Shown: positions 2,261 to 64,000 of the stretch, piece by piece
Position numbering within the stretch: position 1 is the first letter of the stretch
Layout of the letters: the number at the start of each line of letters is the position of its first letter
Source: Stegostoma tigrinum
Lineage: Eukaryota
Direction: 5' to 3'
Assembly: GCF_030684315.1 (NCBI RefSeq)
Contig: NC_081379.1
Location: forward strand, 16,894,637 to 16,958,636
Length of the DNA: 64,000 nt
Program-made: the position numbers and the translations under genes
The notes under the pieces: generated by a model
Database searches by the model: none
What the model was told of the DNA's origin: nothing
Seen by the model: only the letters and a program-made list of their open reading frames with translations

Positions 2261-2558
2261 ACACATCGATATATTTGTAATTATAGAACTATGTTTTCAT
2301 GCAATATTTGACTGTTTGAACTGTACAAAGTTGAGAAATTAAATTAAATGATTTGATTTCCACACATTTCAGGCTAGGTGATGGAATCCTAATGTTGTAA
2401 CAAATTGTTTGTGTGGGGGCTGTCTCTAATCACAAGGCAAAGTCTTGATATTTATCTCCTGTCATAAAAAAGTGTGGCCACTGCGTGTCAGTGTAGATCT
2501 ACAATTAACAACAACCTGAACTGGACAATTGGAACAGACCAGAGCGTAAATTCAATGA

Positions 2559-2587
2559 TAATGGGAACTGCAGATGCTGGAGACGCT
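2559..2587 (-). mobile_element. Tail-only Penelope-like micro-insertion with 13-bp TSD
   Basis: (ga)taatgggaactgcagatgctggaga is identical to the PLE tail at 45472-45498. It is flanked by gtaaattcaatga at 2546-2558 and 2588-2600. Confidence 0.8.
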
Positions 2588-3024
2588 GTAAATTCAATGA
2601 CTTCAGTTCGGTTGTATAACAGTTTATTGAGACAATGTTCAATGTATATCATTGTGATTTCATTGATTTACACTACAATAGTTCAACAACTCTCACCTGG
2701 ATTGGGAAGTAAAGCAAGTGGGTAAAAGAATGGGCAGATCAGTGTGCCTGGTGGGTACGGTGGGTACTGGGCCCTGTTAAACTTTTCTTTTCAATGTATG
2801 TGTATCAATTACAATACAGGAATTGGTAAAATATAAATGTGGGTTCTTTATTTGAAGAAAAGACTATTTACAGGTAATGTTCAAAGGGAGAAAACATGGG
2901 ACTAATACATTCTGTACTTTCCAGTTCTGTATTAAGGTAGGTATTAAGTAGTTTAAAATACACCTACTAAAAATATGTATGTGGTTTATCACAAGAGGCA
3001 GAGCAGACAGTTTGATAGTTAGGC

Positions 3025-3430
3025 ATGGTGGTGTCTGGGCAGGAGGGTCAGGAATTGGAGGAGGGGGTGCAGATGGATTGGATTGGGAGGTATTTACAGG
3101 TTGGGACTCCTGATGAAAGGTCAGGGCAGGTCATTGGTCGTGGAGGCTGGACAGCTTGGATTATGGGGCAGTCAGCTGATGGGACAGGTCAGGTCAAAGT
3201 GAGCTGGAGGATGTGGTCAGGTCAATATCTGGATGGGGCTGGTGTCAGGTCCAGTTTTGATGGGGTCTGGGGTCAGGTCAAGATGTGGTCCCGGCTGGGG
3301 TCAGCTCGGGTCAAAGTATGGTGGGGGCTGGGGTCAGCTTGGATCAAGGTGTAATAGGTACTGGGGTCAAGTCAGGTCAGAGTATGGTTGGAACTGAGGT
3401 CAAGGTGTGATCAGGTCTTGTCAGGCCTGC
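3025..3430. repeat. G-rich low-complexity tract with degenerate ggtca/gggtcagg repeats
   Basis: Many ggtca units at irregular spacing, strongly G-skewed on the + strand. Confidence 0.6.
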
Positions 3431-4189
3431 TTCCGTACTTTATTAGAGGGAAGAGTGCTCTTCAGGTCAGGAGGCAGAATGACAGATTCCCTCAATGGCA
3501 CAGTGGAGAAGGAGACCATTTGGCTGATCATGCCAGCCCAAACTTCTGGGAAGAGCTAGCCAACTAGTCCCATTCCCTCTTGCTGCCTACCCATAGCTCT
3601 GTAAAACCTTTCAAGTAGTTCTCCATTTTCCATTTGCAAGTTACCAGTGAATCTGCTGCCATCATCATTTTGGGCAGTGCATTTCAGACTTTTACTCACT
3701 GCATAATGTTTTCCATTAATATTATCCCCACTGCTTTTGGTGCATTACCTAAAATCTATATCCTCTGTTAATTGACTCTTTTGCCACTGGAGGCAGGCGG
3801 GGAGGAAGGTAAATAGGCTGCCAGGGAGGGACAGCCAGGCTTATGTCACGCCATCTTCCACAAAGTGCCCAGCCCCACTCTCTCACTAGGTTCTGCCAAT
3901 GTTAACAAATAAAATGACATCTCGTTTAACAATCTTCAACAAAAAGTTCAGGTTATTTTTCTAAGTACTGCAATAACACTGATGTCCATAGATGTCACTG
4001 CAATGCAAACGTTGAATGTAACGTTTCCGGGTGCCTTTTTGAATAAGCAAAATTGAAAATAATTTTAATGCCTTAATGGGTGATACTGTTGCTTCATGTG
4101 GCACGGGGCTACTCCGACCTGACATGCTCCATCCTTGGCTTGTATTATTTTTGCCCATCTCAACCAACATAAGGGTCTGGGAGGTAAAA

Positions 4190-4940
4190 CAATAGGTATA
4201 AATGGACAGAAAATTTCCATCAGTCTTCCTGCAAAGATGCAAGGTGGAGGGTATACCCCTGTCCGCATCAGTAGTGCTGAGGTGGAAATGGTTGAGAGTT
4301 TTGAGTTTCTAGGAGTGATGGTCACCAACAATCTGTTCTGGTCTACTCACATTGACACTATGGCCAAGAAAGCACAACAACACCTCTATTTCCTCAGGAA
4401 GCTAAGGAAATTTAGCATGTCCAGAAAGAATTTACCAATTCTTATAGATGCACCATAGAATGTATTCTATCCAGATACATTGTGGCTTGGTATGGCAAAT
4501 TTCTGCCCAGAAACTACAGAGACTTGTGAACACAGCCTAATCCATTACGCAAGCTAACCTTCCATCCACTGACTCCATCTATACTTCCAGCTGCCTCTGC
4601 AAGGCAGCCAACATTATCAAAGACCCTCTCACCCCAGCTATAATCTCTTCTAACCTCCTCTGTCTGGCAGAAGATACAAAAGCTTAAACATACGTACCAA
4701 CACATTCAAGAACAGCCTCTTCCCTGCTGTTATTAGACTTCTGAATGGACCTCCCAAATTTTAAATTTAATGCTAGTCTCATTCCTTGAGCACTTTCTCT
4801 GCAGTTGTAACATTGTAATCATGGTTCTGTTCTATTACCCTAGTGTACTATGCAAGGTATGATCTACCTAAACTGTACACGAAACAAAACTTTGCATTGT
4901 CCCCAGGCACCTGTGACAATAATAAATCAAATCATATCAA
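4190..4940 (+). mobile_element. Rex1/Babar-like non-LTR retrotransposon, 5'-truncated
   Basis: ORF 4135-4458 contains VEMVESFEFLGV..TNNLFWSTHI...KKAQQHLYFLRKLRKF, typical of the Rex1 post-RT region. The 3' end reads gtgacaataataaatcaaatca. Confidence 0.8.
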
Positions 4941-5254
4941 ATTCAGATTACTAACCAATCATTTCTGTTGGAAATTTGAGATTGAGCAAAAATGTGTTAT
5001 ATCAGCCAGGCTGACTTCAAGATTAAGTAGCCTGTCAACATTCTTACTTTCCAACTGGGCTGAAGATTCACATAGGTTGAATTTCTCCTGATCATTCTTC
5101 TCCTCTCAGTGCAAAACCCACTTCCAGCTGGTGCTTATTAAATATGGTGATTGCAAAGTGTCCATTTGTAACTGCAGATAATGCAGCAGTTTCGCCCACA
5201 GCATGCCTTAGATAATGTTTTGGTTTGGGCTGATCAGTGACATGCAGCAGCTTT

Positions 5255-5730
5255 ACCATTCAAAAGACAGGCATTGACCACCTCCAACAAAAGGGCTTCT
5301 AACTCTTTTCCCTTAACACTCAACAGCTTTACAAAATTTGAATGTCATACCATCAGCATTTTGGGGGGACCACTATTGACCAGCAATTTAGATGGATCTG
5401 TGACATAAATACAGCATCTATAAGAACATTAGTGGCTAGGAACTCTGGAGTGAATAATTCATCATCTAACTTTCCATCATCTTTGACACAAAAGCTGGAA
5501 GTGCTTTCCAATTGAATTGGATACATGCAGCTCCAAGTACATCCTGAGAAGCTAGATTCCATCCAGGACAAAGCAGTCCAGTTGATGACTCCCCATTCAC
5601 TCTCTTACATATTCACTCCTTCCACCACTAGTACACGGTGATTACAGTGTGTCGACAAGATGCATTGCAATAACTAGTGAAGGCTCCCTTAGCAGCACCT
5701 CCCTTCCCAAACGCGCGATCTCCACTGCCC
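5255..5730 (+). mobile_element. Fragment of the tRNA-headed CR1-group LINE family
   Basis: Matches 59750-60190 (ccatccaggacaaagcag..., cactccttccaccac...). Confidence 0.65.
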
Positions 5731-6519
5731 TATGTTGAGGTACTAAATACTCGACACTTGTAGCTAGAACCATTGGATTAGAGTCCTACTATATTAAACA
5801 GCCAAATTCAGCAAAATTAATATAGACAGGCCTTGTGGAGCACTGCGACAAAAATCAACATTTCAAAAGGACCTAACTAACATTAAATAAAAGTGTTATT
5901 GTAGAAAGTGATGATGCAGCCCAGTGTTTGCTGCTTGTGGAAGGTCTGAAGTGAAGTGGCCGACATTGCTTACCCCCTTTCCAAGGACACTTTGGCATGA
6001 ATGTAAAATGAAGGAGGGAGGCAATCTGGTGCAATGTTGATGGCTACCTTGACCAGGCCCAGAAGCAGACCCACAAGTGGGTCCCTCTCACCACTGGGTA
6101 TCCAAAGTTCAGGAGCACGGAGCTGCCCCTTTAAGAACAACAAAAAGCGACTGAAGCCTCTAATGGTCTGTTTATGCATGACTGACAGAATCCTCACGGC
6201 TCAGCGAATCTACTTGACGGATGATTACCTTGGTCCTTTGTGAACCATACCCTCTGACCCAGTGCCTGATGGTAAATGGGAAGATCTCCATGTAGACAGA
6301 CTGCTGTTAGAAGCCTCCCCCAGCACTGGCTGGGAAACTGGAACATCATGATGTGTCCAAAGGGCAGACGAAGGGAAGATTGCGAATGGTGTAAAGCAGG
6401 AGCCTATTCAGTCCAGTCCAGCATTCAGTATGATCATGGATGATCCTTTCACTCAATACCATACTTCCACTCACTCCCCATACTCCTTGAGGCCTTTTGT
6501 GTCTAGAAATCTGATCTAA

Positions 6520-8604
6520 AAGTTAAAATTTTAAATTGGAGTAAAGTTCATTTGATGGTATTAGGTAAGAAAATTCAAAGATTGATTGGAAGAGGCTATT
6601 CACAGGTAAAAAGGGTGGTTGGGGAGTGGGAGGCCTTCAAAAACAAGATAATCAAAGTCCAAAGGCAATATGTTTCTGTTAGTGTGAAGGGCAAGGTTGG
6701 TAGGTGTAGGGAATGCTACATGATGAGAGAAGTCAAATCTCTAGCCAAGAAAAAGGAGGCAAATGGCAGGTAAAGACAGCTGGCATTGAATAAATCCCTC
6801 GCGGAATAGAGGGCAGTAGGAGTATACTCAAGAGTGAAATCAGGAGGGCAAAAAGGGGACATGAGATAGCTTTGGCAAATAGGGTTAAAGAGAATCCAAA
6901 GAGAGTCTACAAACACATTAAGGATAAAAGGGTAACTAGGAAGAGAATAGGGCCCTTTTAAAATCAACAAGGCTGTCTATGTGTGGAACCGCAGGATTCG
7001 GGTGAGATATTAAATGAGTATTTTGTGTCAGTGTTTCCTGTGGAGTAGGATATGGAAACTAGAGAACTTGGAGAAATAAATAGTGATATCTTGAAAAGTG
7101 TCAATATTCAGGAACTGAACATCTTAAAATCCCCAGAACCTGATCAGGTGTAGCCTAGAATCCTGTGGGAAGCTAGGGGAGTGGTTGTTGGGCCCCTTGC
7201 TGAGATATTTGTATCATTGATAGTCACAGGTGAGAGGCCAGAAGATTGGGGGGTGGATAATGTGGTGCCATTACTTAAGAAGGGTAGTAAGGAAAAGCCA
7301 GGGAACTACAGACTGATGAACCTACTATCAGCGGTGGGTAAGTTGTTGGAGGCATTTCTGAGGGACAGGATTTACATGTATTTGGAAAGGCAAGGACTGA
7401 TTTTAGGTAGTCAACTTGGTTTTGTGCATGGGAAGTCATCTCACTAACTTGATTGAGTCTTTTGAAGAAGTGACAATGAAGATTAATGAAGGCAGAATGG
7501 TATACATTGGCAATATGGACTTCAGCAAGATGTTCAACAAGGTTCCACGAAGTAGAATTGGTTAGCAAGGTTAGATCATATGGAATCCAGGGACGGCTAT
7601 CCATTTGGATACAAAATTGGCTTTGAAGGTAGGGGACAGAGAGACAGAGAGGTAGAGACTGGAGGCCTGTGACCAGTGGTGTGTTGCAAGGATTAGTGTT
7701 GGATCCATTGTTTTTTGTCATTTATATAAATGATTTTGGATATGAATACCTGAAGAATGGTTAGTAAGTTTGCAGATGACACCAAAATTGGTGGTGTAGT
7801 CAATAATGAAGAAGTTTGTCTCAAAGTACAATGGGACATTGCTCAGATGTGCCAATGGGCTGAAAATCGGTAGATGGAGTTTAATTTTGAAAATTTGACA
7901 TGTTGCATTTTGGTGAAGTAAATCAGGGCAGGACTTATACAGTTAATGGCAGGCTCCTGGGAGTGTTGGTGAACAAAGAGACTTTGGGGTTCATAGTTCC
8001 TTGGAGGTGGAGTTGCAGGCAGACAGAGTTGTGAAGAAGGTGTTGGTATGCTTGTCTTTATTGGTCAGTGCATTGAGTATAGGAGTTGGGAGGTCATGTT
8101 GCAGCTGTATCGGACATTAGTTCGGCCACTTTTGGAATACTGCATTCAATTCTGGAATCCTTGCTATACGTAAGATGTTAAACTTGAAAGGGTGCAGAAA
8201 TGCCTTATGTAGATGTTGCTATGGTTGGACAATTTGATCTATAGGGAGAGACTGAGGGGTGACTTTGTAGAGATTTGCAAAATCATGAGGGACATGGATA
8301 GGGTGAATTGCCAAGGTCCTTTTCATAGGGTTGGATGTCCAAAACTAGACAGCATAGGTTAAAGGGGAAAGATTTAAAAGGGACCTGAAGGACAACTTTT
8401 TTACACAGAGAATGGTGTGTGTATGAAAGTGGTGGAAACTGGTACAATCACACCATTCTGGATGGGTATATGAATAGGAAGAGTTCGAAGGGTATGGGCC
8501 AAATGCTGGCAAATGAGACTAGATTAATTTAGGCTATCTGGTCGGCATGGATGAGTTGGATTGAAACGTCTGTTTCTGTGCTGTACAACTCTATGACTCT
8601 ATGA
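6520..8604 (+). mobile_element. CR1 LINE (HER1-like) ORF2 3' half, decayed, nested in an older antisense CR1 tail (~6390-6515, ~8605-8715)
   Basis: Contains PEDW..NVVPL.KKG.KEKPGNYR, MDFSK.F.KVP and KFADDTKIGG motifs, and ends in (ctatgact)n. Confidence 0.9.
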
Positions 8605-11270: not shown

Positions 11271-11279
11271 CACAATAAC

Positions 11280-11470: not shown

Positions 11471-12127
11471 GTTAGAAATAGTGACCATCAGCACAGTGGC
11501 ATCATGTGTCAATATCCCACTCACACTGAGCCCCTCTCTCGGTGTATTGTACACTGCTCGGTCAGTCTCGTATTGCAAAATTTGAAAGCCATAATAATGT
11601 TTGAATCTCTCTCCTCATGTTGAGTTGGATGGAGATCTTTACTCTTTGGTTGCTGGTTATGAGTCTAAAGGGTAATGGGACCAGTTGAGTAGCAGGACAG
11701 GAGAAGTGATTACCCTTCATCAATGCAGCAGGGTCCCAACACTGACAATTGTTTAAGGCTCACATTCGATAATTTGCTTCAAAACAGTCTGGTCAAGAGG
11801 AAGGCAAGGTCAAGAACTGTCTTCATTCTAAGTTTCCTTTTAAAGTTATTTATGACAATATGAAGACAAAATGCTATAATACATGGTATTCAGCCATATT
11901 TCAGGCTCTAATCTTCCTGTTACATTGTGGAAAGACTACTCCTACTCTATAACTTAATGCTTGTTAGTCTACTCCATATGTTTCTCTCTTCTATTCTTTA
12001 ACTCTGCTCACATTGTGCTTTTTCTGCCCAGTGAAGAGCAACTCTGTGACATCATGACGAAGTTGTGCCAAGGTCCTAAAGCCCATAAATAATAGACCCT
12101 TTACTAACTTTAGCGTCCCGTCATAAT

Positions 12128-12510
12128 CACTCATATCCCACACACACCTCTCCAAGCTTTAATGCCCTGTTATAAACACTCATATCCCACACACACACCT
12201 CTCCAAGCTTTAATGCCCTGTTATAAACACTCATATCCCACACACACACCTCTCCAAGCTTTAATGCCCTGTTATAAACACTCATATCCCACACACACAC
12301 CTCTCCAAGCTTTAATGCCCTGTTATAAACACTCATATCCCACACACACACCTCTCCAAGCTTTAATGCCCTGTTATAAACACTCATATCCCACACACAC
12401 ACCTCTCCAAGTTTTAATGCCCTGTTATAAACACTCATATCCCACACACACACCTCTCCAAGCTTTAATGCCCAGTTATAATCATCCATATCCCACGCAC
12501 ACACCTCCCC
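12128..12510. repeat. 51-bp minisatellite, about 7.5 copies
   Basis: Unit cactcatatcccacacacacacctctccaagctttaatgccctgttataaa in near-identical copies. It produces 17-aa periodic ORFs on both strands. Confidence 0.95.
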
Positions 12511-12726
12511 AAACTTTTGTTCCTTATCATGAACACATATATATTCTCAAGTGAGTTACCTATGGTACTCTTTTTTTTTAATTTTTACAACATTTACTGT
12601 ATTTTTACCTCATATTTCCTACACTCCTCAAAAGTTGTATTTGATCCCTCTGTGTCAATAGATGAGCCAGAAAGGTAAATGGCAAGGTATAAAAACTATT
12701 GCTGCAAAATCAATGAATTTTCTTTC

Positions 12727-13705
12727 ATCCTCCGACACTTCCGCCATCTACAATCCGACCCCACCAACCAAGACATTTTTCCATCGCCACACTTGTCTGC
12801 CTTCCGGAGAGACCACTCTCTCCGTGACTCCCTTGTTCGCTCCACACTGCCCTCCAACCCCACCACACCCGGCACCTTCCCCTGCAACCGCAGGAAGTGC
12901 TATACTTGCCCCCACACCTCCACCCTCAACCCTATCCCAGGCCCCAAGATGACTTTCCACATTAAGCAGAGGTTCACCTGCACATCTGCCAATGTAGTAA
13001 ACTGTATCCACTGTACCCAGTGTGGCTTCCTCTACATTGGGGAAACCAAGCGGAGGCTTGGGGACCGCTTTGCAGAACACCTCCGCTCGGTTCGCAATAA
13101 ACAACTGCACCTCCCAGTCGCGAACCATTTTAATTCCCCCTCCCATTCCTTAGATGACATGTCCATCATGGGCCTCCTCCAGTGCCACAATGATGCCACC
13201 CGAAGGTTGCAGGAACAGCAACTGATATTCCGCTTGGGAACCCTGCAGCCCAATGGTATCAATGTGGACTTCACAAACTTCAAAATCTCCCCTTCCCCCA
13301 CTGCATCGCAAAACCAGCCCAGTTCTTCCCCTCCCCCCACTGCATCCCAAAACCAGCCCAGCTCGTCCCCGCCTCCCTAACCTGTTCTTCCTCTCACCTA
13401 TCCCCTCCTCCCACCTCAGGCTGCACCTCTATTTCCCACCTACCAACCTCATCCTGCCTCCTTGACCTGTCTGTCCTCCATGGACTGACCTATCCCCTCC
13501 CTACCTCTCCACCTATACTCTCCTCTCCATCTATCTTCTCCTCTATCCACCTTCAGTCTGCCTCCCTCTCTCTCCCCATTTATTTCAGAACCCTCTCCCC
13601 ATCCCCCTCTCTGATGAAGGGTCTAGCCCCAAAACGTCAGCTTTTGTGCTCACGGGATGCTGCTTGGCCTGCTGTGTTCATCCAGCTTCACACTTTGTTA
13701 TCTCT
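12727..13705 (+). mobile_element. Neptune-type Penelope-like retroelement, 5'-truncated (linker Cys cluster + GIY-YIG endonuclease + 3' UTR)
   Basis: ORF 12679-13380 has PCNRRKCYTC, NVVNCIHCTQCGFLYIGETKRRLGDRFAEH and VANHF. An 11-bp TSD aattttctttc lies at 12716-12726 and 13706-13716. The hammerhead-like motif at 13611-13638 has GAAA mutated to AAAA. Confidence 0.92.
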
Positions 13706-14089
13706 AATTTTCTTTCTCAGTGCTGGTTTCTGTTACATCAGCAATATTTGCTGAAGGGTCTTACACTGATATAACAGCAGGTATATATATGGAAGTGGGG
13801 TTGTTTCATTTTCCCTGTCATTAACATTTAGATTGGGTGAGGGTGTTAACTCCCTGAGAAAAGAGTGTTCTTGTTTATCCATAGGTGGCTGTTAACCTGG
13901 TAAAGAAATTTGTTCCATTGTTATATTGGCCTATCCTTCAAGGTTCTGTTCCAAGGCAGTCCCTTGCTATCTTCACTGTTGCACTGGAGATGGGCAACAA
14001 ATTTTGGTTCAGCCAGCAGTGCCCACATCCAATGGATGAATTTTTTAAAAAATGAACCTGGAGAAAATATCCCACTGGTCAGTCAAACC

Positions 14090-16144: not shown

Positions 16145-16280
16145 TGTTCTAAGGATGGGTCACTTGACCCAAAATGTGAACTCTGATTTCTCCCCTCAGA
16201 TGCTGCCAGACCTGCTGAGCTTTTCCAGCGACTTCTGTTTTTGTTCCTGATTTACAGCAGCCACAGTTCCTTTCGTTTTA
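16145..16280 (+). mobile_element. PLE 3'-end remnant (older subfamily) with decayed hammerhead and tail
   Basis: ctaaggatgggtcacttgacccaaaatgtgaactctg...cagatgctgccagacctgctgagc. Related copies lie at ~24374-24480(-), ~26023-26128(+), ~32825-32945(-) and ~43350-43478(+). Confidence 0.7.
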
Positions 16281-24289: not shown

Positions 24290-25110
24290 TTTACATATGA
24301 ATATACAAACTAGGAGTGGATATTGACAACTCAGCCCCTCAAACCTATTCTAATGTTCAACAAGATCATGACTCAAACAAAAACAGAAATTGCTGGAAAA
24401 AGTCAGCAGGTCTGGCAGCATCTGTGGAGAGAAATCAGAGTTAACATTTCAGATCTGGTGGCCCTTCTTCAGAACCCTTCAGTTGGTCCTTAGCACGTTT
24501 GTTTATATGCTGTACCTGCATACTATTCTTTTGTGACTTGTGACTCATTTTGTGACATCTAAATCACTTTGCATCTTGGAATTCTGCAGTCATATATCAG
24601 GTTTCTTTTATTTTATTTATTGATGTTTCAGGTCCAGTGACCCTTCCTCAGAACTGCTAAATTAATCTAAATTAAATTAAATTAATCTGAATTAAACGTA
24701 AATAAAAGTTTTTTTTAATCTTCATGCCAAAATGAACAACTTCACACTTTCCACATTATGTTTCATGTGCTAGATTTTTGCCGATTCACTTAGCCTATCT
24801 ATATACTTCAGCAACTTACTTATATTTTCTTTACACTGCACTTCACGCCTATCTTGGTGCTGTTTACAAAACTAGTTGCAATGATCTTGTTCCACCATCG
24901 TTGATATAAATAGTAAAAATTTGAGGTCCCAGGACAGACTCTTTCAAAAATCTACTTGTTACACCAAGCCAATCAAATATCTATTTATGCATTCTCCTTG
25001 TTTTCTACAAGCCAGACAGTCTTTTCTTCACACTCATAATACCTCCCACATCATGAGCCTTTATTTGTTGCAATAACCTTTGATGTGGCATCTTATCAAA
25101 TGCCTGTTAG
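24290..25110 (-). mobile_element. Old CR1 fragment with nested PLE remnants
   Basis: CR1-type tail (catatgaatatacaaactaggagtgga..) and RT remnant (ttgatgtggcatcttatcaaatgcc = AFDK.PH on the minus strand). Confidence 0.6.
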
Positions 25111-25574: not shown

Positions 25575-26200
25575 CTTGCTATAGGAAAGATGTTGTTAAA
25601 CTTGAAAAGGTGCGGAAAAGATTTACAAAGACATTGTTAATGTTGGCAGGTTTAATCTAAAGGGAGAGGCTGAATATGTTGGGACTTTATTCCCTGGAGC
25701 ACTGGAGGCTGAGGGTTGATCTTGTAGAGGTTTATAAAACTAGGAAGGGCATGGATAGGATGAATAGCAAGGGCTTTTTTACCAGGGTGGCAGTTCCAAA
25801 ACTAGAGGGCACAGGTTTAAGGTGAGAGAGCAAAGATTTAAAGGAGACTTGAGGGGCAACATTTTCACTCAGAGGGTGGTGTGTAAATGGAACGAGCTGC
25901 CAGTGGAGGTGATGGAGGTTGGTATAATACAACATTTAAAAGGAATTTGGATGGGTACATGAATAGGAAGCATTGAGAGGGATATGGGACAAATGCTGGC
26001 AAATGGGGCTAGTTTAATTTAGCAGTTCTGAGGAAGGGTCACTGGACATGAAACATTAAATCTGATTTCTCTTCATAGATGCTGCCAGACCTGGTGAGCT
26101 TTTTCAGCAACTTCTGTTTTGTTTCCAGATTAATTTAGGATATCTGTTGGCATGTACGAGTTGGGCTGAAAGGTCTGTTTCTGTGCTGTGTAACACTACG
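25575..26200 (+). mobile_element. CR1 3' fragment with nested PLE remnant (~26023-26128, ttaatttag duplication)
   Basis: RLR.DL.EVYK and TRGHRFK..F..DLRGN.FTQRVV-type motifs, with a 3' UTR like that of 8350-8604. Confidence 0.85.
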
Positions 26201-28171
26201 ACTGGCTTACCTGTAATCCTTGGACTTGTTGCACTTGATCTGCAGACCCCTGGAATCTGGTAAAATCAAGCACTCATCTGACCATGGCCCACCTCCTGGA
26301 CTGGTCACGGATGAGGCCTTCGCTGAGTGTGGTGGCAGCCTCTGACTGAATGACAGCAAGCATGGTGACGTGGTGAGACCAGTAGTTTGTTGATACATGC
26401 ATTTATGAAGTGTAGAGAAGGATGATTTTCTGTCATTTTTTAATACACTCCCTCTCAATCATCCACTGTTCCACGTACTTGTGAGGTCAGTCCCAGATCA
26501 CTACTTTTTTGTCTCATTAACTAATCTGGTTTGATTATGGGGTCCTTTGCAATACATAAAGGAGTTTTATGAAAGTGGTAACTGTACTGCTTGTTATCTG
26601 TGGGATGTCCACACCCTAGTCCCCATGGATTATGAAATTTTGTGGAAATGATTAGAAACACATTAGAAATTACTAAATTTACAGATATTCTGGATAAATT
26701 TTATCTACATTTTTTGAAATGGAGTTGTAAACTACATAAGAAACATTCATCAGTTTAAATGCATCCAGTCTAACAAGACTCATAATACATTCTTACTTTG
26801 TCTTTTAGTTTCTTTCTAAAACTGCCTTTATGCAAAATGCAAAGGACAGAAGCTCAGTTCCATTACTGAATTCAGCACTGTTCTGTTTGGAGGGATTACA
26901 TCTAAGAACAAACAAGCAGACGGAAATTTGCTCCCTGAGTTGAAGATTGTTGACTATAATCCCTTTGCAAGTAAATTTGTGTCAAATATATTAATATGCA
27001 GTCTTTATCAATGCCGTTTTTTTGGTAGACAAATGATTCTTCTTTATGGTCTTGTGCATTTTGCTTTGCTATCCAGCCATTATGGAACAATAATCTACAT
27101 GAACACATTTTTCAGAAAGTCAAAGATGAACCAATCAAATCACTCAATTTGTTTGTTTAACATAAAGGTACAATAGTCGTAATTGCCATTCATTAGCCAT
27201 TCATAACAAGGTCCATTTTTCAACTTAAGATTTAATTAGTTTATAGAGACAGCACCTCCAATTTGAAGCATCCTCTCCTTTTGTTATGTCCTGCTGTAGG
27301 CTGCTACACCTTTTAACTTGGAAGGCTTCTGGTTGGCTTCAAGAAACCAGCTACTGCCCTTACTTGAATGGTGAATCAATTGGCAGGTCAATTAAGGGAC
27401 ACCCCTCTGGAAAATCGAGCAGTTGTAGGGATTCAACTGGTCCTGAAAACTATTTCTAGCCCCTGAAGGCGAAGTCCTGCTGTAGACTGCAGCAATGAAC
27501 AAAGGAACAGTCATGTGATGTAATAGCGCCTTCAATGCATGCCAACAGTCTAAATGTTGGAATCTGCTTCCAACCCAGGATTACGTTCTTCACCATTGTT
27601 ATGTTAGCCTCAGCCACAGCCTCCCTCCTCTAGTTCTACATTAGTGTACACAACTGTCCCTTTCTCCAATGTTGCTAAGTGAGAGGTACAGGTACTCATC
27701 TGCAAGCTGTTAAATTATTTATTTACTTTTTGCAAAACCTAGATATTAAAAACAAATGGAAATATAATTCATCACTGAAGTTGAATGCTAATCAAAAGCA
27801 TTGATTTATTTATAGCCTTCAAAAACAAAATTAAGTCATGAAAGTTTAATTCAAAATACTAGTGTTAAAAAACCCAAGGAGCCTCCTGACAGAAACTATG
27901 AATTAACTAAATGACTTACCATCAATCAGTAGCCCTGGTAAAACAAATTGCATTAATGGTATATCTTCCTTACTGTTATAACACAATACATCCTCTAACT
28001 CAAACATGAACAATTTCATTAGGGACCTGTCGCAGTTTTATTAAAATAACATGAATCCAAAATTTCCAGTTATCCATCACACTATCCATCATTTGAACTT
28101 CTGTAATTAATTGACTGAAATTTTACCTCCATAAAAGAATGACAAATGAAAACTATATAGGTAGACACCAT

Positions 28172-28375
28172 CGCCAACACAATGTGGCACTGGAGGAAAA
28201 CAGCAGGTTAGGCAGCATAGGAGGAACAGGAAAGTTGACGTTTCGGGTTGCAATGAAGGGTCCCAACCCAAAATGTCGAATCTACTGCTCCTCTGATGCG
28301 GCCTGAACTGCTGTGTTCCTCCAGCTCCACACCCTATTGACTCTGACTCCGGCATCTACAGTTCTTGCTATCTCC
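28172..28375 (+). mobile_element. Older PLE hairpin mini-insertion (inverted arm + sense arm + tail)
   Basis: Imperfect inverted arms around a decayed hammerhead, with tail ctccggcatctacagttcttgctatctc. A degenerate 14-bp TSD taggtagacaccat/tagatggacaccat lies at 28158-28171 and 28376-28389. Confidence 0.7.
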
Positions 28376-28664
28376 TAGATGGACACCATGTCAGAGACAA
28401 GCAATGAAGGAGCATTCAAATCATCAGTTGTGAAATTATAAGAAACACAAATCACACTGTTTCAGTCAGTAACCAACTCATGTTTTCATCAGTGGTAAAT
28501 CCAGTGTTTGATGGGCATTTGCTAGGCCAGGGACACAGGACCTCTCAGGCTGAAAATCCTTGCCAATAGCCCCCACAGTTTTGTACTGATGGGTTAGCTT
28601 GGTTTGGGTACAGCCTCTGCCTACACAATGGCTAGTTAAAACTAAGACACTGTTTTAACTTGAT

Positions 28665-33180: not shown

Positions 33181-33219
33181 TGTGCCACTTTAATCCAAAC
33201 CTCTTCTCCTTTTCAAGCA

Positions 33220-33376
33220 ATATAATAAAATGTGAGGCTGGATGAACACAGCAGGCCAAGCAGCATCTCAGGAGCACTGTGCTCCTGAGATGCTGCTTGG
33301 CCTGCTGTGTTCATCCAGCCTCACATTTTATTATCTTGGAATTCTCCAGCATCTGCAGTTCCCATTATCTCTGATA
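33220..33376 (+). mobile_element. PLE hairpin mini-insertion
   Basis: Perfect 56-bp arms (33222-33277 and 33279-33334) with a 1-nt loop, then the tail. A 14-bp TSD ctccttttcaagca lies at 33206-33219 and 33377-33390. Confidence 0.92.
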
Positions 33377-33489
33377 CTCCTTTTCAAGCATTTGTGTTTC
33401 AACAATCTTCTTGAATTATTTGAAGAAGTAATAGAAAGGATACACAATATGTCCTTCCAAATTATGAACAAGTACTAGTTTGTTTCTCC

Positions 33490-43479: not shown

Positions 43480-43530
<51 letters not shown>

Positions 43531-43547: not shown

Positions 43548-45471
43548 CAGTATTTTGTACAAATTTTGATCTTTTATTCAATCTAAAGCTGTTGGTTTTT
43601 TTTTGCTGAGTAAAAATGTGCATGCACTCGTATGGTCAAAGAATTGTGTATTTGAGTACTTAAGTTTCTCTGTTGACCTGTGTCCCTTAGAAACTTTACA
43701 TTGAGTATGTACACTCACTCATTGTTTTATTTTTCCCAGATATTACATCAGGTGTATCTATCTTCTATTACTCACATAGCCACCAGCCTGTCATTCTAAA
43801 CTATCTGTTTTTCCTGAAGTCTTCTACAGCTACTCTTATTTGTCAAAACCCTGACTTTTGTATTTTAGGTTAATTTTAAAATGTCTGTCATGCTCAAGTT
43901 AAATAATAACAGGACCATCAGTACATCCTTTCCACTCCTTCTCCAATACAAACAAAACTCATTTGCCCAACACTTTTTCTTTCTGTGTAGCTTCTTGCAT
44001 ATGATGGTTTTTGTTAAAGCAAATCTCTTACAAGACACCAGGACATTGTATGTTAAATGCCTGATGTTTTCAATTACTTACTACTTCAGAAGCTCTGAAA
44101 TTTTTCAAAACATGACTTGCTTAAAGTATAACTGTGCTGGTTATCTTGACTAACTTTTTTACATTTCTGAATACTTAGTAATTTTATCTCAAATTAAGGA
44201 TTCTGAGACTTTGCACCCAATGATATTAGATTGACTAATCCATAAAATTCCATGACTGTCCACTTTTTTTTGGAAAAAAAGTGTGCAGTGGTGTAATTTC
44301 CATATTTAAGGAATGGAAAACTGTGGACAAACCCACTATCTCTGATTTTTCTTCACTATTATTGGGCATGTGCCATCAGGCTTCAGTTCTTATTCACCTT
44401 GGATCCTGCGCTGTAATGGTTCCACTAGTATTTGCACAGTCAACAAGTGACCTGTTTACAAGTTTATGTCAATGGTGCTCTGCGTGTGCCCATTAGGAAA
44501 CATTTAGGGGATGAGTTTGATCCTTTCTCTTGGGAAGTGTTTAATTTTATGTCTGATATCTTCCGAATGGGATGATATCAAGAACTATAGAGGCTAGTCC
44601 AATTAATTGACATATAGGATATTGCCTTTGTGTAACAACAAGCTAGGTTGTTGGGTCATTGCAACCTTCTTGCCTACTCTGTAACCAAGGGAAGGACGTG
44701 ATTTGGAGAAAGTCATGGATGCAATGCGTCAGTTGCAATATAAAGTGAACAAATTTTTAAGGATTAATTTGAAATTGTTACTTGTATAAAACAACTGACT
44801 ACTTAATTTATATTAGTCCATTAATGTAGAAAATATGACAGCCCTTACATATGAAGGACAAAAATAAAATAGGTAGAAGAAGTATAGAAAAAATAATGGT
44901 GAGCTGTAGTGAGAGAGTTAGGAGAGTTCAGAATGCTTTCTTAAAATGAACAGAGGGGTTAAGAGTAGAAGAATTCAGAAAGAGATGTCCAGTGAGTACA
45001 ATACTGGTTGCATGCACCAGATCAAAGTTGGCAGAATGTAAGTAATTGATGAGGAAATGTATGTATAGTTACAGGAACAAGAGATAAGGAAACCATGGAG
45101 AGACTTTACTTTGTCTTTGTTGGTTGCATTAGATCATTGCATTGGTAACCAAGTGACACTACTACAATGCCAGGCTTAGTATAAACGCAGAATAAAGTCC
45201 AGGTGGCCACTGACCTACCACTGCAGGTGGTAGTGGTAGGAACAATTTGAAATGATAGATTAACAATAAAATTGTACATTGACATAAGATTTTCCATTAT
45301 CTTACTCGGATCAATACAATAAAAAAACGTTGACAACAATTTCTAAGTGACACTCGGCATGCACTTATTATCCTGCAATCAATGAAGAGCATCAGAAAAC
45401 GAAAGCAATTTAATCCTTGGTGGTTTTTATCTGTCAGTGCAGTTGACTATTGCTGTCTGTGATTTGTTGGC

Positions 45472-45658
45472 GATAATGGGAACTGCAGATGCTGGAGATT
45501 CCAAGATAATAAAATGTGAGGCTGGATGAACACAGCAGGCCAAGCAGCATCTCAGGAGCACAAAAGCTGACGTTTCGGGCCTAGGCCCGAAACGTCAGCT
45601 TTTGTGCTCCTGAGATGCTGCTTGGCCTGCTGTGTTCATCCAGCCTCACATTTTATTA
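45472..45658 (-). mobile_element. PLE perfect-palindrome mini-insertion in GRK3 intron 1
   Basis: Loopless palindrome at 45504-45661 centred on gggcct|aggccc, preceded by the inverted tail. A 16-bp TSD tctgtgatttgttggc lies at 45456-45471 and 45659-45674. Confidence 0.93.
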
Positions 45659-46189
45659 TCTGTGATTTGTTGGCAGCTGGTTAAATCAACTGATCAAATG
45701 ATATATAATCTGTAAATAAGTGGTGAGAATGAATTTCTTGGCCTGAACTTTAGGCAAAAACTGATACATTTGGTGGTCAAGGCTATACTCTACAAATGTG
45801 TTCAATTAAGAGTATAATTACATTGTAAATCATAAGATTGTAACTATAGGCAGTTGTATCTTAACTTTATCATAACTTCAGCCATGTTATTGAGTGGCGG
45901 GACTAGCTGTACCTGGAGTGATTGTGCGTAAAATCACCAAAGAATGGTGGTGAAGGGGTGGTTATTTGCATGTTGTGAGAATAAAATCAGAGGAAGAGAC
46001 ATTTCTGAGTTGGAGGGAAGAAATCAGCTATTCACGGATGGAGGAAAAATAATGTCTGTAGAAGTGTCAAATACAGAGATTAGCATTGAAAGACGAGGAT
46101 TGCTGTCTTCCCTTTAGCTCAACAGGACTTGTGACTGTACAGAACCAAAAAAAATGTCGAAAGGAGGAAATATAATTTACCAAAAAGCT

Positions 46190-55023: not shown

Positions 55024-55556
55024 TAATAAAATGTGAAGCTGGATGAACACAGCAGGCCCAGCAGCATCTCAGGAGCACAAAAGCTGACGTTTCGGGCCTA
55101 GACCCTTCATCAGAGAGGGGGATGGGGTGAGGGTTCTGGAATAAATAGGGAGAGAGGGGGAGGCGGACCGAAGATGGAGAGAAAAGAAGATAGGTGGAGA
55201 GAGTATAGGTGGGGAGGTAGGGAGGGGATAGGTCAGTCCAGGGAAGACGGACAGGTCAAGGAGGTGGGATGAGGTTAGTAGGTAGATGGGGGTGCAGCTT
55301 GGGGTGGGAGGAAGGGATGGGTGAGAGGAAGAACAGGTTAGGGAGGCAGAGACAGGTTGGACTGGTTTTGGGATGCAGTGGGTGGAGGGGAAGAGCTGGG
55401 CTGGTTGTGTGGTGCGGTGGGGGGAGGGGACGAACTGGGCTGGTTTAGGGATGCGGTGGGGGAAGGGGAGATTTTGAAACTGGTGAAGTCCACATTGATA
55501 CCATTAGGCTGCAGGGTTCCCAGGCGGAATATGAGTTGCTGTTCCTGCAACCTTTG
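55024..55556 (-). mobile_element. Neptune-type PLE 3' fragment (intron 2, antisense)
   Basis: RLQEQQLIFRLGTLQPNGINVDF, purine/pyrimidine-skewed UTR and intact hammerhead core. Confidence 0.92.
55083..55116 (-). ncRNA. Minimal type I hammerhead ribozyme motif
   Basis: The minus strand reads tctCTGATGAa-gggt(ctag)gccc-GAAACGTCag: catalytic boxes, stem II and GUC triplet are intact and stem III is vestigial. Confidence 0.7.
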
Positions 55557-55599
55557 GGCTGTCAGCTCGCTGTCCTTTACACTCATTTAAATTGAGCCT

Positions 55600-57837: not shown

Positions 57838-60465
57838 GCGGAATGGCCTAGTCGCATGATTGTTAGACTATTAATTCAGACACTTGGCTAATGTTGTGGG
57901 CACCCAAGTTCGAGTCCTGCCAAGGCAGATGGTGGAATTTGAATTTAACTTTTTAAAAAAAATCAGGAATTGAGAATCTACTGATGACCATGAAACTATT
58001 GTTGAAAAACCCATCTGGTTCACTTGTCTAGCCTACATGTGACTCCAGACCCACAACAATGTGGTTGACTCTCAGTTGCCCTCTGAAATAGCCTAGCAAG
58101 CCATTCAGTTGTACAGATCACCACACAGTCTCCAAGAAAAGAAACCGGATGGATCACCTTGTATCGACCTAGACACCAGAAAAGACAATGGCAGAAACAG
58201 CTCTGTCGCCCTTGCAAAGTCCTCCTCACTAACATCTGGGGGCTAATGCTAAAACTGGGAGAACTGTCTCGCAGACTAGCCAAACATCAGCCTGACATTG
58301 TTAGTAAGGTATGATTCCGTGAGCATGACCATGTTCCAGCCACCACCGTCACCACTTCTGGATATGTCCTGTCCCAGCAAAGGTGAGGGCACAGTGGTAA
58401 ACAGTCAGGAGGGAGTTACTCTGGGAGTCCTCAACATTGACACTGAACCCCATGAAGTCTCGTGGCTTCAGGTTAAATATGGGGCAAGGAAACCTCCTGC
58501 TGATTACAACATGCCATCCTTTCTCGGCTGTTGAATCAATACTCCTTCGTGTTGAACAACTCTTAGAGGAAGCATTTAGGATGGGGAGGTGAAGGCTTAG
58601 TGGTATTATCGCTGTACTGTTAATCCAGAGACCTAGGTAACATCCTGGGGATCTGGGTTCAAATCCCACCACAGCAGATGGTGGAATTTGAATTAAATAA
58701 ATATCTGGGATTAAGAGTTTAATGATGACCGTGAATCCATTGTCAATTGTTGGGTTCACTAACACCCTGTTGGGAATGAAGCTGTCATCCTCACCTGGTC
58801 TGGCCAAGATATGTCTCCCGTCCCACAGCAATTTGGTTGACTCTTAACTGTCCTCTGGGCAATTAGGGATGGGTAATTAATGCTGCCTGGCCACTGATGC
58901 CCTCATCCTGTGAATAAATTTTTTAAAAAGAGGCACAAAAGGACATAGCTGCTACACTGAGTCTGCAACAGGTAGTGAGGGAACCAGTTAGAGGGGAAAA
59001 ACCTACTTGGCTGCATCCTTTCAAGTCTGCTGGCTGCAGATGTATCTGTCCATAACAGTATCGGTAAAAGTGGAGACGAAGTCCCACCTTCACATTGAGA
59101 ATAACCTCCATTGTGTTGTGTGGCACTATCACTGCGCTAAATGTTACAGACTTGAAACAAATCTAGCAACGCGAGACTGGGCACCCATAAGACATTGTGG
59201 GCCATTGACAGCAGCAGAATTGTACTCTGGCACAATCTGTAACCTCATGGTCCAGTATATGACCCATCAATTTTGGCTTAATAGAGAGCGCAGGAGGGCA
59301 AGCCAGGAACAGTGCCAGGCACACCCAATGGTGAGAATGACAGCCCTTGACATCAAGGCTGTATTCAACTGAGTGTGGCAGTAAGGAACCCGAGGCAAAA
59401 CTGGATTCAGTGGGTATCGCGGCAAAACTCTCTGCTGGCTGGAGTCATACCTGGCAGAGAGGAAGATGGTCATGGTTGTTGGAGGCCTGTCATCTCGACT
59501 CCAGGATGTATTTGTAGGGGTTCCTCCAGGATAGTGCCCGAGGCCGAACCACATTCAGCTGTTTTAATCAACTACTTTCCCTCCATCGTAAGGTCACACC
59601 TGGGGATGTTCACTGTTGACGTGCACATATTCAGTATCATAATGTGACTTCTCATACAGAAGCAGTCCTTGTTCAAATGCAACAAGATCTGGACAATATC
59701 CAGGCTTGGGCTGATAAATGGCAAGTAACATTTGCGCCACACAAGTGCCAGGCTGTGACCATCACCAACAAGAGACAATCTAACCTCCCTTGAAATTCAG
59801 TGGTGTTGCCATCACTGGATTCCCCACTATCAACATCCTTGTGTTTGTCACTGAGTAGAAACTCAACTGGACTAAAAACAGTGACTATGAGATCAGAGGC
59901 TAGGAATACTGTTAAGTAACTCACCTCCTGACACCCCTGTCATCTCCAGGACCACAAGTCAGGAATGTGATGGAATGCTTCCTACTTGCCTGGATGAGTG
60001 CAGCCCCAACAACACTCCAGAAGCTTGACACCATCCAGGACAAAGCAGCCCGCTTGATTGGCACTGCACCCATGAGCATCCACTTCTTGCACCACCACTG
60101 CTGCTACTAAGCGATGATTGCGAGCTACAAAATGCATGGCAGAAATTCACAGTCAGCACCTTCCACAGCCATGACCACTTCCAGCTAGAAGGATAAGGAC
60201 AGCAGATACATGGGAGCACCAACACCTTCAAGTTCTCCTCCAAGCCACTCACCATTCTGACGTGGAAATATATTGCTATTTCTTCACTGTTGCTGGATCA
60301 AAATTCTGCAGTTCTATCCCAAATAGTATTAAGGGTCAACCCTCAGCAGGTTGACTGCAGCCATTCAAGGCAGTTCACTGCCACCTTCTCAAGGGTAACT
60401 AGGGATGGGCAATAAGTGCTGGCCAGCCATCGACTCCTGCATCCCACAAATGAATAAAAAAGAAA
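57838..60465 (+). mobile_element. tRNA-headed CR1-group LINE, full span with internal deletions (intron 2, sense)
   Basis: A-box-like tggcctagt at 57844, B box gttcgagtcc at 57908-57917, APE start NIWGLMLKLGELSRRLAKHQPDIV, RT motifs, and 3' end gggtaactagggatgggcaataagtgctggcc...atgaataaaaa. Confidence 0.85.
58591..58925 (+). mobile_element. Bipartite tRNA-SINE nested in its partner LINE
   Basis: ggcttagtggta...ggttcaaatcc head, body homologous to 57838-58085, joined directly to the LINE 3' terminus. Confidence 0.85.
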
Positions 60466-60467
60466 AT

Positions 60468-60855
60468 TTGGGTTGTCATGTTACAGCTGTACAAGACATT
60501 TGGTAGGGCCATATATGGATTAATGTGTCCATTTCTGGTCACTCTGCTATAGGAAGGATGTTATTAAACTGGAAACAGGGTTTAAGTTTAGAGAGCAAAG
60601 ATTTAAAAGGGACCAGACGGGCTATTTATCACACAGAGTGTGGTGTGTATATGGAACAAGCTGTCAGAGGAAGTGTTTGAGGCATGTACAATTGCACCAT
60701 TTAAAAGATATTTGGACAGGTTTATGGATAGGAAAGGTTTTCGGGATTTGGGCCAAATGCGAGCAAAATGGTCCTACTTCAGTACAGGAAACCTGTTGAG
60801 CATGAACAGGTTAGGCCAAATGGCCTGTTTCCATGCTGTATAATTCTATGACTTT
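60468..60855 (+). mobile_element. CR1 3' fragment with internal deletion
   Basis: LQLYKT..., F.CYRKDVIKLE jumps to RFK..., with tail ttctatgact. Confidence 0.8.
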
Positions 60856-60947
60856 GTGTAAATCTTAGCATAAACTTAATCCCATTAATTTAGTTTTCCA
60901 AGGAAAGAACTGCTTATAAGCACTTGTTTAAAAAAAACTCAAAACAT

Positions 60948-61448
60948 GTCCATGCTGGGCCTCCTGCAGTGCCATAATGATGCCACCTGTAGGTTGTGGG
61001 AACAACAACTCATATGCCACTTGGGAACCCTGCAACCTAATGGTATCATTGTGGATTTCACCAGCTTCACAATCTCCCCTCCCCCCACTGCATCCCAAAA
61101 CCAGCCCAGCTCGTCCCCGCCTGCCTAACCTGTTCTTCCTCTCACCTATCCCCTCCTCCCACCTCAAGCCGCACCTCCATTTCCTACCGACTAACTTCAT
61201 CCGTCCTCTTGACCTGTCCACCCTCCCTGGACTGACCTGTTCCCTCCCTACCTCCCCACCCATACTCTCCGCTCCACCTATCTTCTCCTGTATCCATCTT
61301 CAGCCCGCCTCCCCCTTCTCCCTATTTATTTCAGAATCCTCTCCCCATCCCCCTTTTCTGATGAAGGGTCTAGGCCCGAAACGCCAGCTTTTGTGCTCCT
61401 AAGATGCGGCATGGCCTGCTGTGTTCATCCAGCCCCACACTTTTTGTT
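60948..61448 (+). mobile_element. Neptune-type PLE 3' fragment (intron 2, sense)
   Basis: GLLQCHNDATCRLWEQQLI..LGTLQPNG. A 12-bp TSD aactcaaaacat lies at 60936-60947 and 61449-61460. The hammerhead at 61358-61385 has GTC changed to GCC. Confidence 0.92.
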
Positions 61449-62109
61449 AACTCAAAACATAACTATTTATTGGCTGTCGTGGCGCTCCAACATTTGATCC
61501 TCCATTCAAGGCAAGACCAGTGTGTGCTGTGGGGCACACCAACTCCACCCACGACCTTTAGTTACAAGTAATTATTGTATAAAATGATGCTTAAGACTAG
61601 CGCACAATTTTTAAAAAAATTCTGTTTGGAAGTAGATGTCCTTACCTCACAGATAACTCCCAGACCTGAGTTAACTTGCTAGTAGGGCAGTGCAAAGCGT
61701 GCTACAGGGGCTGTTGAACCTGAAAGCTGCTAGTGATCCATGGATTCAGTTTCTGGAAGGTACACAGGACCACCTTTTCTCCATTAACTGAAACTGACAA
61801 CAACTGGCATAAATGAATCTTTGTTATATGCATCTCAGCAGTATAATACAAATAATATTGCATCCTTCATACACTGCATAATGTAGGAACTAAAATGTTA
61901 AAGGAATTCCTTGAAGTGCTATTACACACTCCCAGTGCAAGCTGCCATACAGCACTCTGTTTGCTGGTTTGTTACGTTGTGGTTTTCCTCCTAAATATTT
62001 GAAACGAGATTAAAAAAAACTGACTTGGAATTGTAAAACACCTTTATTGCTTTCTACAAACTTTGATGTACTAACTATTTGGGGGATCTCTTTAAATTTC
62101 ACAGACTGT

Positions 62110-62500
62110 TCCTAGGTACATAAGGAATAGGTTAAATAGCATCTCAACCCACTCTGCCATGCAGAGAGGTGATCTGCAATCACCTCTCTTGCCATCATGT
62201 TTCTTCGAACCCAGGGTCAGCAAAAAAGAAAATTGCAGCTATAAAGTTGTTCTTCTCATTTGTCGTAGTTAATTGTGGAAGGGTGTTCCATACTTTGACC
62301 ATTTTTTGTGTGGGGAAGTGCTTACGAACATCTCTCCAGAATGGCTTGGATAACTTTTTATTCCCCAAAACTTTGCCTCTTCGTCTAAACTCTGCCATTA
62401 GTGCAAAACACTTGTATCTACTCTACAAATTTCCTTCGAACTTGCTTCTTTTAATCATTTTGCTCCAGGGAATATAAATCTAGATTTTACGTTCTCTCAC
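62110..62500 (-). mobile_element. Old CR1 3' fragment
   Basis: ORF 62195-62398 contains F.RDVRKHF.TQK.VKVWNTLPQ. Confidence 0.65.
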
Positions 62501-62716
62501 CCTTCCTTGGAGGCCTGATATCCAACTGTTCTTTTTCAGATATTTTCTAACCCATCTGTTCAGAGATGTTATTATACCGTTCTGGAACAGATGAGACTTG
62601 AACCCAGGACTCTTGGTCTAGAAACAGGGACACTACCACTGTTCCACCAGAGTCATTGAGCTGTACAGCATGGAAACAGACCCACTGGTCCAACTCATCC
62701 ATGCTGACCAGATATT

Positions 62717-63027
62717 AGCACAGTGGCGCAGTGGTTAGCACTGCTGCCACACAGCACCAGGAGCCCAGGCTTGATTACACCCTCGGGCGACTGTCTGCAT
62801 GGAGCTTGCACGTTCTCTCCACGTCTGCGTGGATTTCTTCTGGGTTTGCCAGTTTCCTCCCACAGTCCGAAGATGTGCAGGCTGGTTGGACTGGCCATGC
62901 TAAATTGCCCAGAGTGTCCAGGGATGTGTAGATTTGGTGGGTTATAGGGGGATGGGCGGGATGCTCTAAAAGTCGGTGTGGACTTGTTGGGCTAAAGGGC
63001 TAGTTTCCACAGTGTAGGGAGTCTACG
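62717..63027 (+). mobile_element. V-SINE (HE1-like) nested in an antisense CR1 tail (62650-62716, 63028-63090)
   Basis: gcacagtggcgcagtggttagcactgctg head, V core and gtttccacagtgtagggagtcta tail. Confidence 0.88.
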
Positions 63028-63098
63028 AAGCCTAAGTCATATCCAAAATTGATCTAGTCTCATTTGCTAGCATTTCGCCCATATCCCTAGAAAACATT

Positions 63099-64000
63099 GA
63101 TAACAAATTGTGGAGCTGGATGAACACAGCAGGCCAAGCAGCATCTCAGGAGCACAAAAGCTGACGTTTCCGGCCTAGACCCTTCATCAGAGAGGGGGAT
63201 GAGGGAACTGGAATAAATAGGGAGAGAGGGGGAGGTGGACCGAAGGTGGAGAGAAAACAAGATAGGTAGAGAGGAGAGTATAGGTGGGGAGGAGGGGAGG
63301 GGATAGGTCACTGCAGGGAAGATGGACAGGTCAAGAAGGCGGGGTGAGGTGGTGGGTAGGAAATGGAGGTGCGGCTTGAGGTGGGAGGAAGGGATGGGTG
63401 AGAGGAAGAACAGTTTAGGGAAGCAGAGACAGGCTGGGCTGGTTTTGGGATGCAGTAGGGAAGGGAAGATTTTGAAGCTTGTGAAGTCCACATTGATACC
63501 ATTGGGCTGCAGGGTTCCCAAGTGGAATATGAGTTGCTGTTCCTGCAGCCTTCGGGTGGCATCATTGTGGCACTGCAGGAGGCCCATGATGGACATGTTG
63601 TCTGAGGAATAGGAGGGGGAGTTGAAATGGTTCGCGACTAGGAGGTGCAGTTTTTTGTTGCGAACCGAGCGGAGGTGTTCTGCAAAGCGGTCCCCAAGCC
63701 TCCGCTTGATTTCCCCAATGTAGAGGGAGCCACACTGGGTGCAATGGATACAATATACCACATTGGCAGATGTGCAGGTGGATATCTGCTTGATATGGAA
63801 GGTCATCTTGGGGCCTGGGATGGGGGTGAGGGAGGACATGTCGGGGCAAGTGTCGCACTTCCTGTGGTTGCAGGGGAAGGTGCCAGGTGTGGGGGGGTTG
63901 GACGGGAGTGTGGAGCGAACAAGGGAGTCATGGAGAGAGTGGTCTCTCCAGAAGGCAGACAAGGGTGGGGATGGAAAAATGTCTTGGGTGGTGGGGTCGG
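63099..64000 (-). mobile_element. Neptune-type PLE running off the window end
   Basis: ORF 63087-63962 has PCNHRKCDTC and NVVYCIHCTQCGSLYIGEIKRRLGDRFAEH. The hammerhead core is at 63163-63190. Confidence 0.93.

Follow-up and report, generated by a model that had tools for sequence, protein, structure and literature searches.

Two-armed insertions of a Penelope-like element (PLE) in the zebra shark, Stegostoma tigrinum, almost always join a tail-less arm to an inverted arm that keeps a tail, and both arms were likely copied from one template. The element was studied from its copies in a stretch of 64,000 nucleotides (nt) of contig NC_081379.1 (assembly GCF_030684315.1, positions 16,894,637 to 16,958,636, forward strand), hereafter the window, and in a sample of the genome. 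We propose, with a probability of roughly 0.6, that in such insertions the element's protein introduces nicks into both target strands, about 14 bp from each other, and starts a complementary DNA (cDNA) at each of two sites of a single RNA.

Positions in the element are counted from the last base of ...TTATTATC, the tail boundary, which was set to zero, so that the tail runs from +1 onward. Arms that end at this boundary and lack the tail are termed U, and those that keep the tail, scored by an end at +15 at least, are termed T. An arm was considered young when it showed at least 88% identity to the reference across -92 to +33. The random sample consisted of 162 stretches of 10 kb taken at round coordinates on large contigs (1.62 Mb in total), and 357 arms were recovered from it. 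Loci L002 to L030 were found with a query that favours tail-less ends; they were excluded from the random counts and used only for the shared-variant test, the centre-junction test and one separate row in the tabulation of pairs.

Once stretch edges were excluded, 152 of the 169 young arms of the random sample ended in one of two windows, 78 at -12 to +9 and 74 at +31 to +55, with 3 ends at +10 to +30, 11 before and 3 after (p ~1e-20 versus a uniform distribution). Ends anchored by a target site duplication (TSD), taken from the first 149 stretches, were spread over about -5 to +4 for U arms and +33 to +51 for T arms, with 15 of 42 T ends at +36. The 3' ends are windows about 36 nt apart, not single bases, and the fixed internal breakpoint of a first-pass annotation of the window is not confirmed in the sense of a single nucleotide. 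Its placing of the tailed start site at the very 3' end of the RNA is wrong: T ends reach +51, and the element runs on beyond the tail into an open reading frame (ORF) whose first in-frame ATG lies at +75. Both end sites therefore lie inside an RNA that extends across the junction between the ORF and the pseudo-long terminal repeat (pLTR).

The heptamer ATTATCT is present in both end windows, 33 nt apart. Target and element overlapped at the 3' ends by 1.5 to 1.6 nt on average, a value from which no claim is drawn. Folding of -113 to +77 gave an ordinary stability (z -0.33), and the start sites are accordingly not assigned any structure. A few arms ended at about +145 to +163, in ORF-side sequence (L215, L102:7677-7831 and L026), hinting at a minor third start zone. 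Tandem repeats of about 40 nt from the boundary/tail region were seen inside insertions (L023:374-453, and positions 169046333 and 169061111 of G000:C1), which suggests repeated re-priming. Internal jumps between short repeated words near the boundary, e.g., from +5 to -2, recurred in several copies (L062 and matches listed for short T arms).

The arms were paired in a nearly exclusive manner. Among 93 head-to-head pairs, 86 were T+U, 5 were UU and 2 were TT, and 58 of the 60 pairs with a TSD of at least 10 nt were T+U (p 1.6e-15 versus 50%); the 50% expectation was taken from one-armed copies with an abutting TSD (8 T and 10 U). The TSDs of young pairs measured 10 to 18 nt, with a mode of 14 (n = 37), and a TSD of at least 8 nt was found in 34 of 38 young pairs versus 10 of 380 random controls. 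The TSD geometry of two-armed insertions fits a reaction in which both target strands would act as primers. These end positions and mixed pairs support the earlier proposal of two start sites, in the form of windows used singly or together. The annotation had set beforehand two outcomes that would contradict it; the 3' ends were not continuously distributed, and inverted arms did not carry the tail as often as not.

The test for shared sequence variants covered 54 young pairs with a confirmed TSD (36 random, 16 query-found and 2 from the window), 50 of which have diagnostic sites. The arms of one pair agreed at 465 of 497 subfamily-diagnostic non-CpG sites (93.6%) versus 75.5% for age-matched copies; 25 rare variants were common to both arms, compared with 2.0 expected, and 208 were private to one arm. 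Arm lengths, which ranged from about 10 nt to 2.7 kb, were correlated (rho 0.67, n = 39), with U the longer arm in 20 pairs, T in 10, and the two within 5 nt of each other in 9. The centre junctions were all distinct (45 of 45), and 26 of the 45 had extra or mismatched bases, some of them copied from nearby sequence. Distinct junctions, shared variants and arm lengths together are more in keeping with end-to-end joining of two cDNAs made on one RNA than with a fold-back. Joining guided by microhomology at the hairpin centres was unsupported, overlaps of at least 2 nt being found at 9 of 45 junctions versus 16% by chance, with no enrichment.

Copies that appeared to have a single arm were of several kinds. 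Among 66 unpaired young arms, a TSD lay within 150 nt in 27, none was found in 33, and 6 were at stretch edges. Of the 27 with a TSD, 18 abutted it (the 8 T and 10 U arms mentioned above), 6 were accompanied by a mini-arm and 3 by other filler. All six mini-arms were small, inverted and derived from the other site; among random fillers, 38 of 1000 scored positive in this test. T arms truncated after -42 were sought by pattern, with 725 matches in the genome; of the first 30 loci, 19 proved to be true short T arms, the other 11 being internal deletions or longer arms. The 5' ends of these 19 ranged from +7 to -39, with 10 inside -9 to +7, and in the random sample 5 of 6 short T arms started at -7 to +9. 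Any excess close to the boundary is mild at most, and there is no fixed break. This excess might reflect collision with the U-primed complex. Ten short T arms had a TSD-confirmed inverted pLTR partner, in all cases tail-less, and three were one-armed. Tail-only inserts do not form a fixed class of their own but are the short extreme of a continuum of truncated T arms. The tail-only insertion annotated in the window does exist as a 27-nt piece (2557 to 2583); the common breakpoint ascribed to it does not, this piece starting at +7 and the 19 short T arms anywhere from +7 to -39.

In the proposed reaction, two reverse transcriptase (RT) active sites could not occupy one site on one RNA, which would force the mixed pairing. 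The tail-primed RT would follow the boundary-primed RT and displace its cDNA, and the 3' ends of both cDNAs would then be linked by host end-joining. The same reaction would account for one-armed, mini-armed and tail-only inserts when one of its cDNAs stays short or is missing. More tentatively, many arms may be short for want of template, its 5' end lying near, at about -95 (a possible transcription start) or at -63 (a predicted hammerhead cut). In a wider form, twin priming would be obligatorily coupled, with a dimer that loads the two nicked strands on one RNA at two set sites 36 nt apart and a trailing RT displacing the first cDNA, a single reaction that would yield every truncated form as well as the inverted pLTR and the one-sided tail, and with hammerhead-cut RNAs as the templates in vivo; to this whole we give somewhat less than even odds.

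A number of observations weigh against the proposal. The evidence from the zebra shark genome consists of fossil insertions only, with no cDNA or RNA ends, and strand displacement by a PLE RT is a proposed step only, absent from the literature passages compared. A search of sequencing runs listed no RNA data set. Gene conversion between the palindromic arms could give rise to shared variants, and the excess of longer U arms over longer T arms was not significant (p 0.10). As for the exceptions to mixed pairing, L137 is an old TSD-confirmed pair that looks truly UU, and L062 is a young pair scored UU; the latter ends in the last tail bases after an internal jump and is read as a tail-started arm with such a jump. 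Two TT and three UU pairs, all without a TSD, were also found, and one apparent T + mini-T insertion was seen by eye among the matches listed for short T arms. Class frequencies are rough, half of the unpaired young arms (33 of 66) having no TSD within 150 nt and 6 lying at edges.

Other origins of the two arms were weighed against priming on one RNA. Self-priming by a single cDNA that folds back and copies itself into the second arm, a scheme proposed for palindromes in the passages compared from PMC3846280, predicts both shared variants and near-equal arm lengths, and CTAG, AGCT or similar short palindromes do occur at some joints. However, folding of a tailed cDNA needs a T arm at least as long as the U arm, and in 20 of 39 pairs the U arm exceeded the T arm by over 5 nt and up to 2.5 kb, while folding of a tail-less cDNA gives no tail at all. 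With mini-T arms sitting on U bodies, and with centre junctions that lack enriched overlaps and often contain the extra or mismatched bases described above, fold-back is an unlikely origin. We consider it likewise rather unlikely that an asymmetric dimer primes on two separate RNAs, the arms becoming alike later by gene conversion or through one dominant source locus. No strand displacement is then required, a dimer is predicted for another PLE (PMC11167929, passages compared), and the arms agree at 93.6% of sites, not 100%, with many private rare variants. Independent RNAs would nonetheless be unlikely to yield near-equal long arms (-444/-451, -230/-232 and -558/-561), rare variants are shared even in the youngest pairs, whose arms show zero differences across 221 to 249 nt, and mixed pairing is left unexplained unless an asymmetry is added.

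Strict T+U pairing would also result if the endonuclease (EN) resolved a DNA intermediate by a pair of staggered cuts, separated by about 36 nt, so that one end retained the tail, as suggested in the part of PMC8557442 compared. The ATTATCT heptamer in both windows could be a nicking motif, the Anolis element Poseidon_Ac (PAc) preferring ATT according to the passages compared from PMC11167929; in the same passages, however, both tail boundaries are RT start sites in vitro. Moreover, the ends scatter over about 10 to 18 nt, and one-armed copies of both kinds have ordinary TSDs and the same end windows, which makes resolution by the EN improbable. The abundance and similar size of the hairpins might indicate non-autonomous elements copied as whole units, or assembly artefacts, and one junction (a 6-nt overlap, -25/-88) was seen by eye about 7 times among 100 short-T-arm matches listed. 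That recurrence is accounted for by the 6-nt overlap, and the 45 differing junctions, the TSDs flanking entire units and the wide range of arm lengths already contradict this idea, which we regard as very improbable.

The pLTR carries a minimal hammerhead motif at -91 to -64, missed in the first-pass annotation. In 155 arms the core was CUGANGA, the variable position being T in 97 and A in 56, and the stem II pairs were kept in 138 to 147 of the 155; an Rfam scan of the window gave no match at the gathering score. From the type I hammerhead consensus, we predict a cut site between -64 and -63. The 5' ends of arms cluster just downstream of this predicted cut: in 151 young arms, 48 started at -99 to -83, 6 at -82 to -64 and 23 at -63 to -53 (p 3e-6 for the contrast between the last two bins, which were chosen after seeing the data). 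Among 100 matches listed of 52,204 in the genome, 9 ends were found by eye at -62/-63 and 1 at -64 to -73, together with 15 at -74 to -82, more than in the random sample. The cluster at -63 might well represent run-off on hammerhead-cut RNA, a reading to which we give close to even odds, the cut being predicted; stalling of the RT at the 3' foot of the -91 to -62 hairpin fits too, and an AGCT palindrome at -63 favours joints at that point. The cluster near -95 may mark a transcription start in the pLTR, the Penelope transcript starting inside the upstream pLTR in the passages compared from PMC2377424. The motif resembles the minimal type I hammerheads of PLE pLTRs in its CUGANGA core, bulged base before a long stem II, GAAA, palindromic helix III and short helix I; in the passages compared, those motifs show low cleavage in vitro, and insertion 5' ends are not tied to the cut site (PMC4209133).

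The identity of the element was established on an intact copy, L190, reached by searching with sequence downstream of the tail. It contains, in order, an inverted U arm, a direct pLTR, a frame of 1085 codons and a T end. The frame matched RVT_1 (E 1.8e-5, residues 570 to 711) and GIY-YIG (E 0.0019, residues 945 to 985), both under the Pfam curated cut-off. By eye, PADKGG (a DKG motif), YIDD and VVY..YIG were recognized, as well as a CCHH motif (VVYCIHCTRCGFLYIGET plus a downstream His, with two Cys between GIY and YIG) and, in the RT-EN linker, CNRRKCYTC ahead of the EN, i.e., CX4CxxC, which fits CX2-5CxxC. A search of PDB sequences with this frame and a Pfam search with a 287-residue piece of L080 gave no match. 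According to the passages compared from PMC8557442, DKG and CCHH mark EN-containing (EN+) PLEs, and the CX2-5CxxC linker marks Neptune/Nematis. Judged from sequence, the family is an EN+ PLE, with an RT followed by a C-terminal GIY-YIG, the DKG and CCHH motifs, the pLTR layout, a tail and TSDs; a partial-tandem pLTR, an inverted truncated copy and a tail of 30 to 40 nt, all found here with the TSD, are features of that group. The linker cysteines favour Neptune or Nematis over Penelope/Poseidon, in which such a motif is absent. The L190 ORF (1503-4757) includes a low-complexity Pro/Thr/Ala/Asp repeat at about residues 250 to 300 and a Pro/Ser-rich C-terminal tail. L080:6750-8434 holds an array of units of about 440 nt (pLTR, tail and the first 200 nt after the tail), one of them inverted, which looks like a non-coding tandem derivative.

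In L1 twin priming, reportedly described by Ostertag and Kazazian in 2001, both nicked strands are said to serve as primers for cDNA synthesis on a single RNA, which leaves a 5' inversion within the TSD. The second primer reportedly anneals at a variable internal site, the two parts having no overlap. In the shark element, by contrast, the second site does not vary, and one stretch is usually represented in both arms; the L1 geometry was found only in inserts made of a tail-only piece and an inverted body (L094, L198, L025 and L213).

The closest known system is PAc, for which two internal RT start sites bound the tail in vitro and genomic ends fall on those sites; PAc cuts and extends both target strands in vitro, and a dimer is predicted (PMC11167929, in the passages compared). 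The shark element is like it in having two start sites that bound a tail of 30 to 40 nt, matching genomic ends and a hammerhead upstream of the tail. PAc is a member of Penelope/Poseidon with start sites within the ORF, whereas the shark element has a Neptune/Nematis-like linker and its first in-frame ATG after the tail. The passages compared do not deal with inverted insertions or site pairing and report no strand difference in start site; for PAc, no RNA ends were detected at the hammerhead cut. Insertions of EN+ PLEs in general are also similar, with a partial tandem pLTR, an inverted 5'-truncated copy, a tail often at one end only and a TSD around the whole unit; the accounts compared are qualitative, invoke EN resolution or antisense self-priming, and include no pairing count, same-template test or mini-arm class (PMC8557442, PMC3846280 and PMC2377424, in part). 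A literature search covering few subscription journals found neither near-obligate pairing nor one-RNA twin priming for PLEs, and no shark record of this element. The kind of element, its tail, the pair of start sites and the restriction of the tail to one side of inverted copies are already known from the passages compared (PMC11167929, PMC8557442 and PMC3846280), and what is added is near-obligate mixed pairing and the evidence for a common template, which is useful and testable. The origin of inverted pLTRs with a one-sided tail is called undefined in the part of PMC8557442 compared; the mixed-pair counts, shared variants and other-site mini-arms narrow it to one testable reaction.

The copies in the window and their TSDs, checked by self-comparison and inspection, were as follows.

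1881 to 1955, plus strand: older tail-less arm, not in the first-pass annotation; 80% identity; no TSD found.
2557 to 2583, minus strand: tail-only piece of 27 nt, +7 to +33, with 4 extra bases on the 5' side; TSD 2546-2558 / 2588-2600 (13 nt).
12727 to 13705, plus strand: one-armed tail-less copy, 5'-truncated, with a decayed endonuclease region; TSD 12716-12726 / 13706-13716 (11 nt).
13611 to 13634, plus strand: hammerhead core motif of the 12.7-kb copy, CUGAUGA and stem II, with AAAA replacing GAAA.
28172 to 28375: old-subfamily hairpin, U arm 28181-28247 (minus), T arm from 28253 (plus); TSD 28158-28171 / 28376-28389 (14 nt, with mismatches).
33218 to 33378: hairpin, U arm (minus) and T arm (plus, to about +42), arms starting at -56/-57; TSD 33206-33219 / 33377-33390 (14 nt).
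45472 to 45661: hairpin, T arm (minus, to +33) and U arm (plus); TSD 45456-45471 / 45659-45674 (16 nt).
55024 to 55558, minus strand: tail-less copy, 5'-truncated; hammerhead core 55090-55113; no TSD found.
60944 to 61448, plus strand: one-armed tail-less copy, 5'-truncated; hammerhead core 61358-61381; TSD 60936-60947 / 61449-61460 (12 nt).
63099 to 64000, minus strand: U arm belonging to a two-armed insertion, about 2.5 kb in all; this arm extends about 610 bases beyond the window; hammerhead core 63167-63190.

The annotated hairpins at 28.2, 33.2 and 45.5 kb were each confirmed as one T plus one U arm, and the visible TSDs agreed with those described earlier. The arms of the 45.5-kb hairpin meet at a palindromic CTAG within hammerhead stem II. 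The four long copies at 12727-13703, 55024-55558, 60944-61443 and 63099-64000, which had been described as tail-less, all end near the boundary (at +1, -2, about -6 and 0, respectively), as stated; the last is the U half of a two-armed insertion. When the next 4 kb were included, its U arm (-1601 to 0) was found head to head with a T arm of about 1 kb (-999 to +36), within a 13-nt TSD with 2 mismatches, read by eye. Because this inverted T arm abuts it beyond the window, the 63099 copy is a long hairpin and no separate class. The attribution of all copies to one PLE family holds in that they are EN+ PLEs; it is not confirmed in the strict sense, the 28.2-kb hairpin being only 72 to 78% identical to young copies and belonging to an older subfamily.

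A second repeat family was observed at 16146-16252, 24376-24475, 24626-24651 and 26025-26131, its members being 81 to 84% alike and some having a hammerhead-like CUGANGA...GAAA core; it is possibly another PLE. Just upstream of the 12.7-kb copy lies a tandem array (12108-12542) with a period of about 51 nt.

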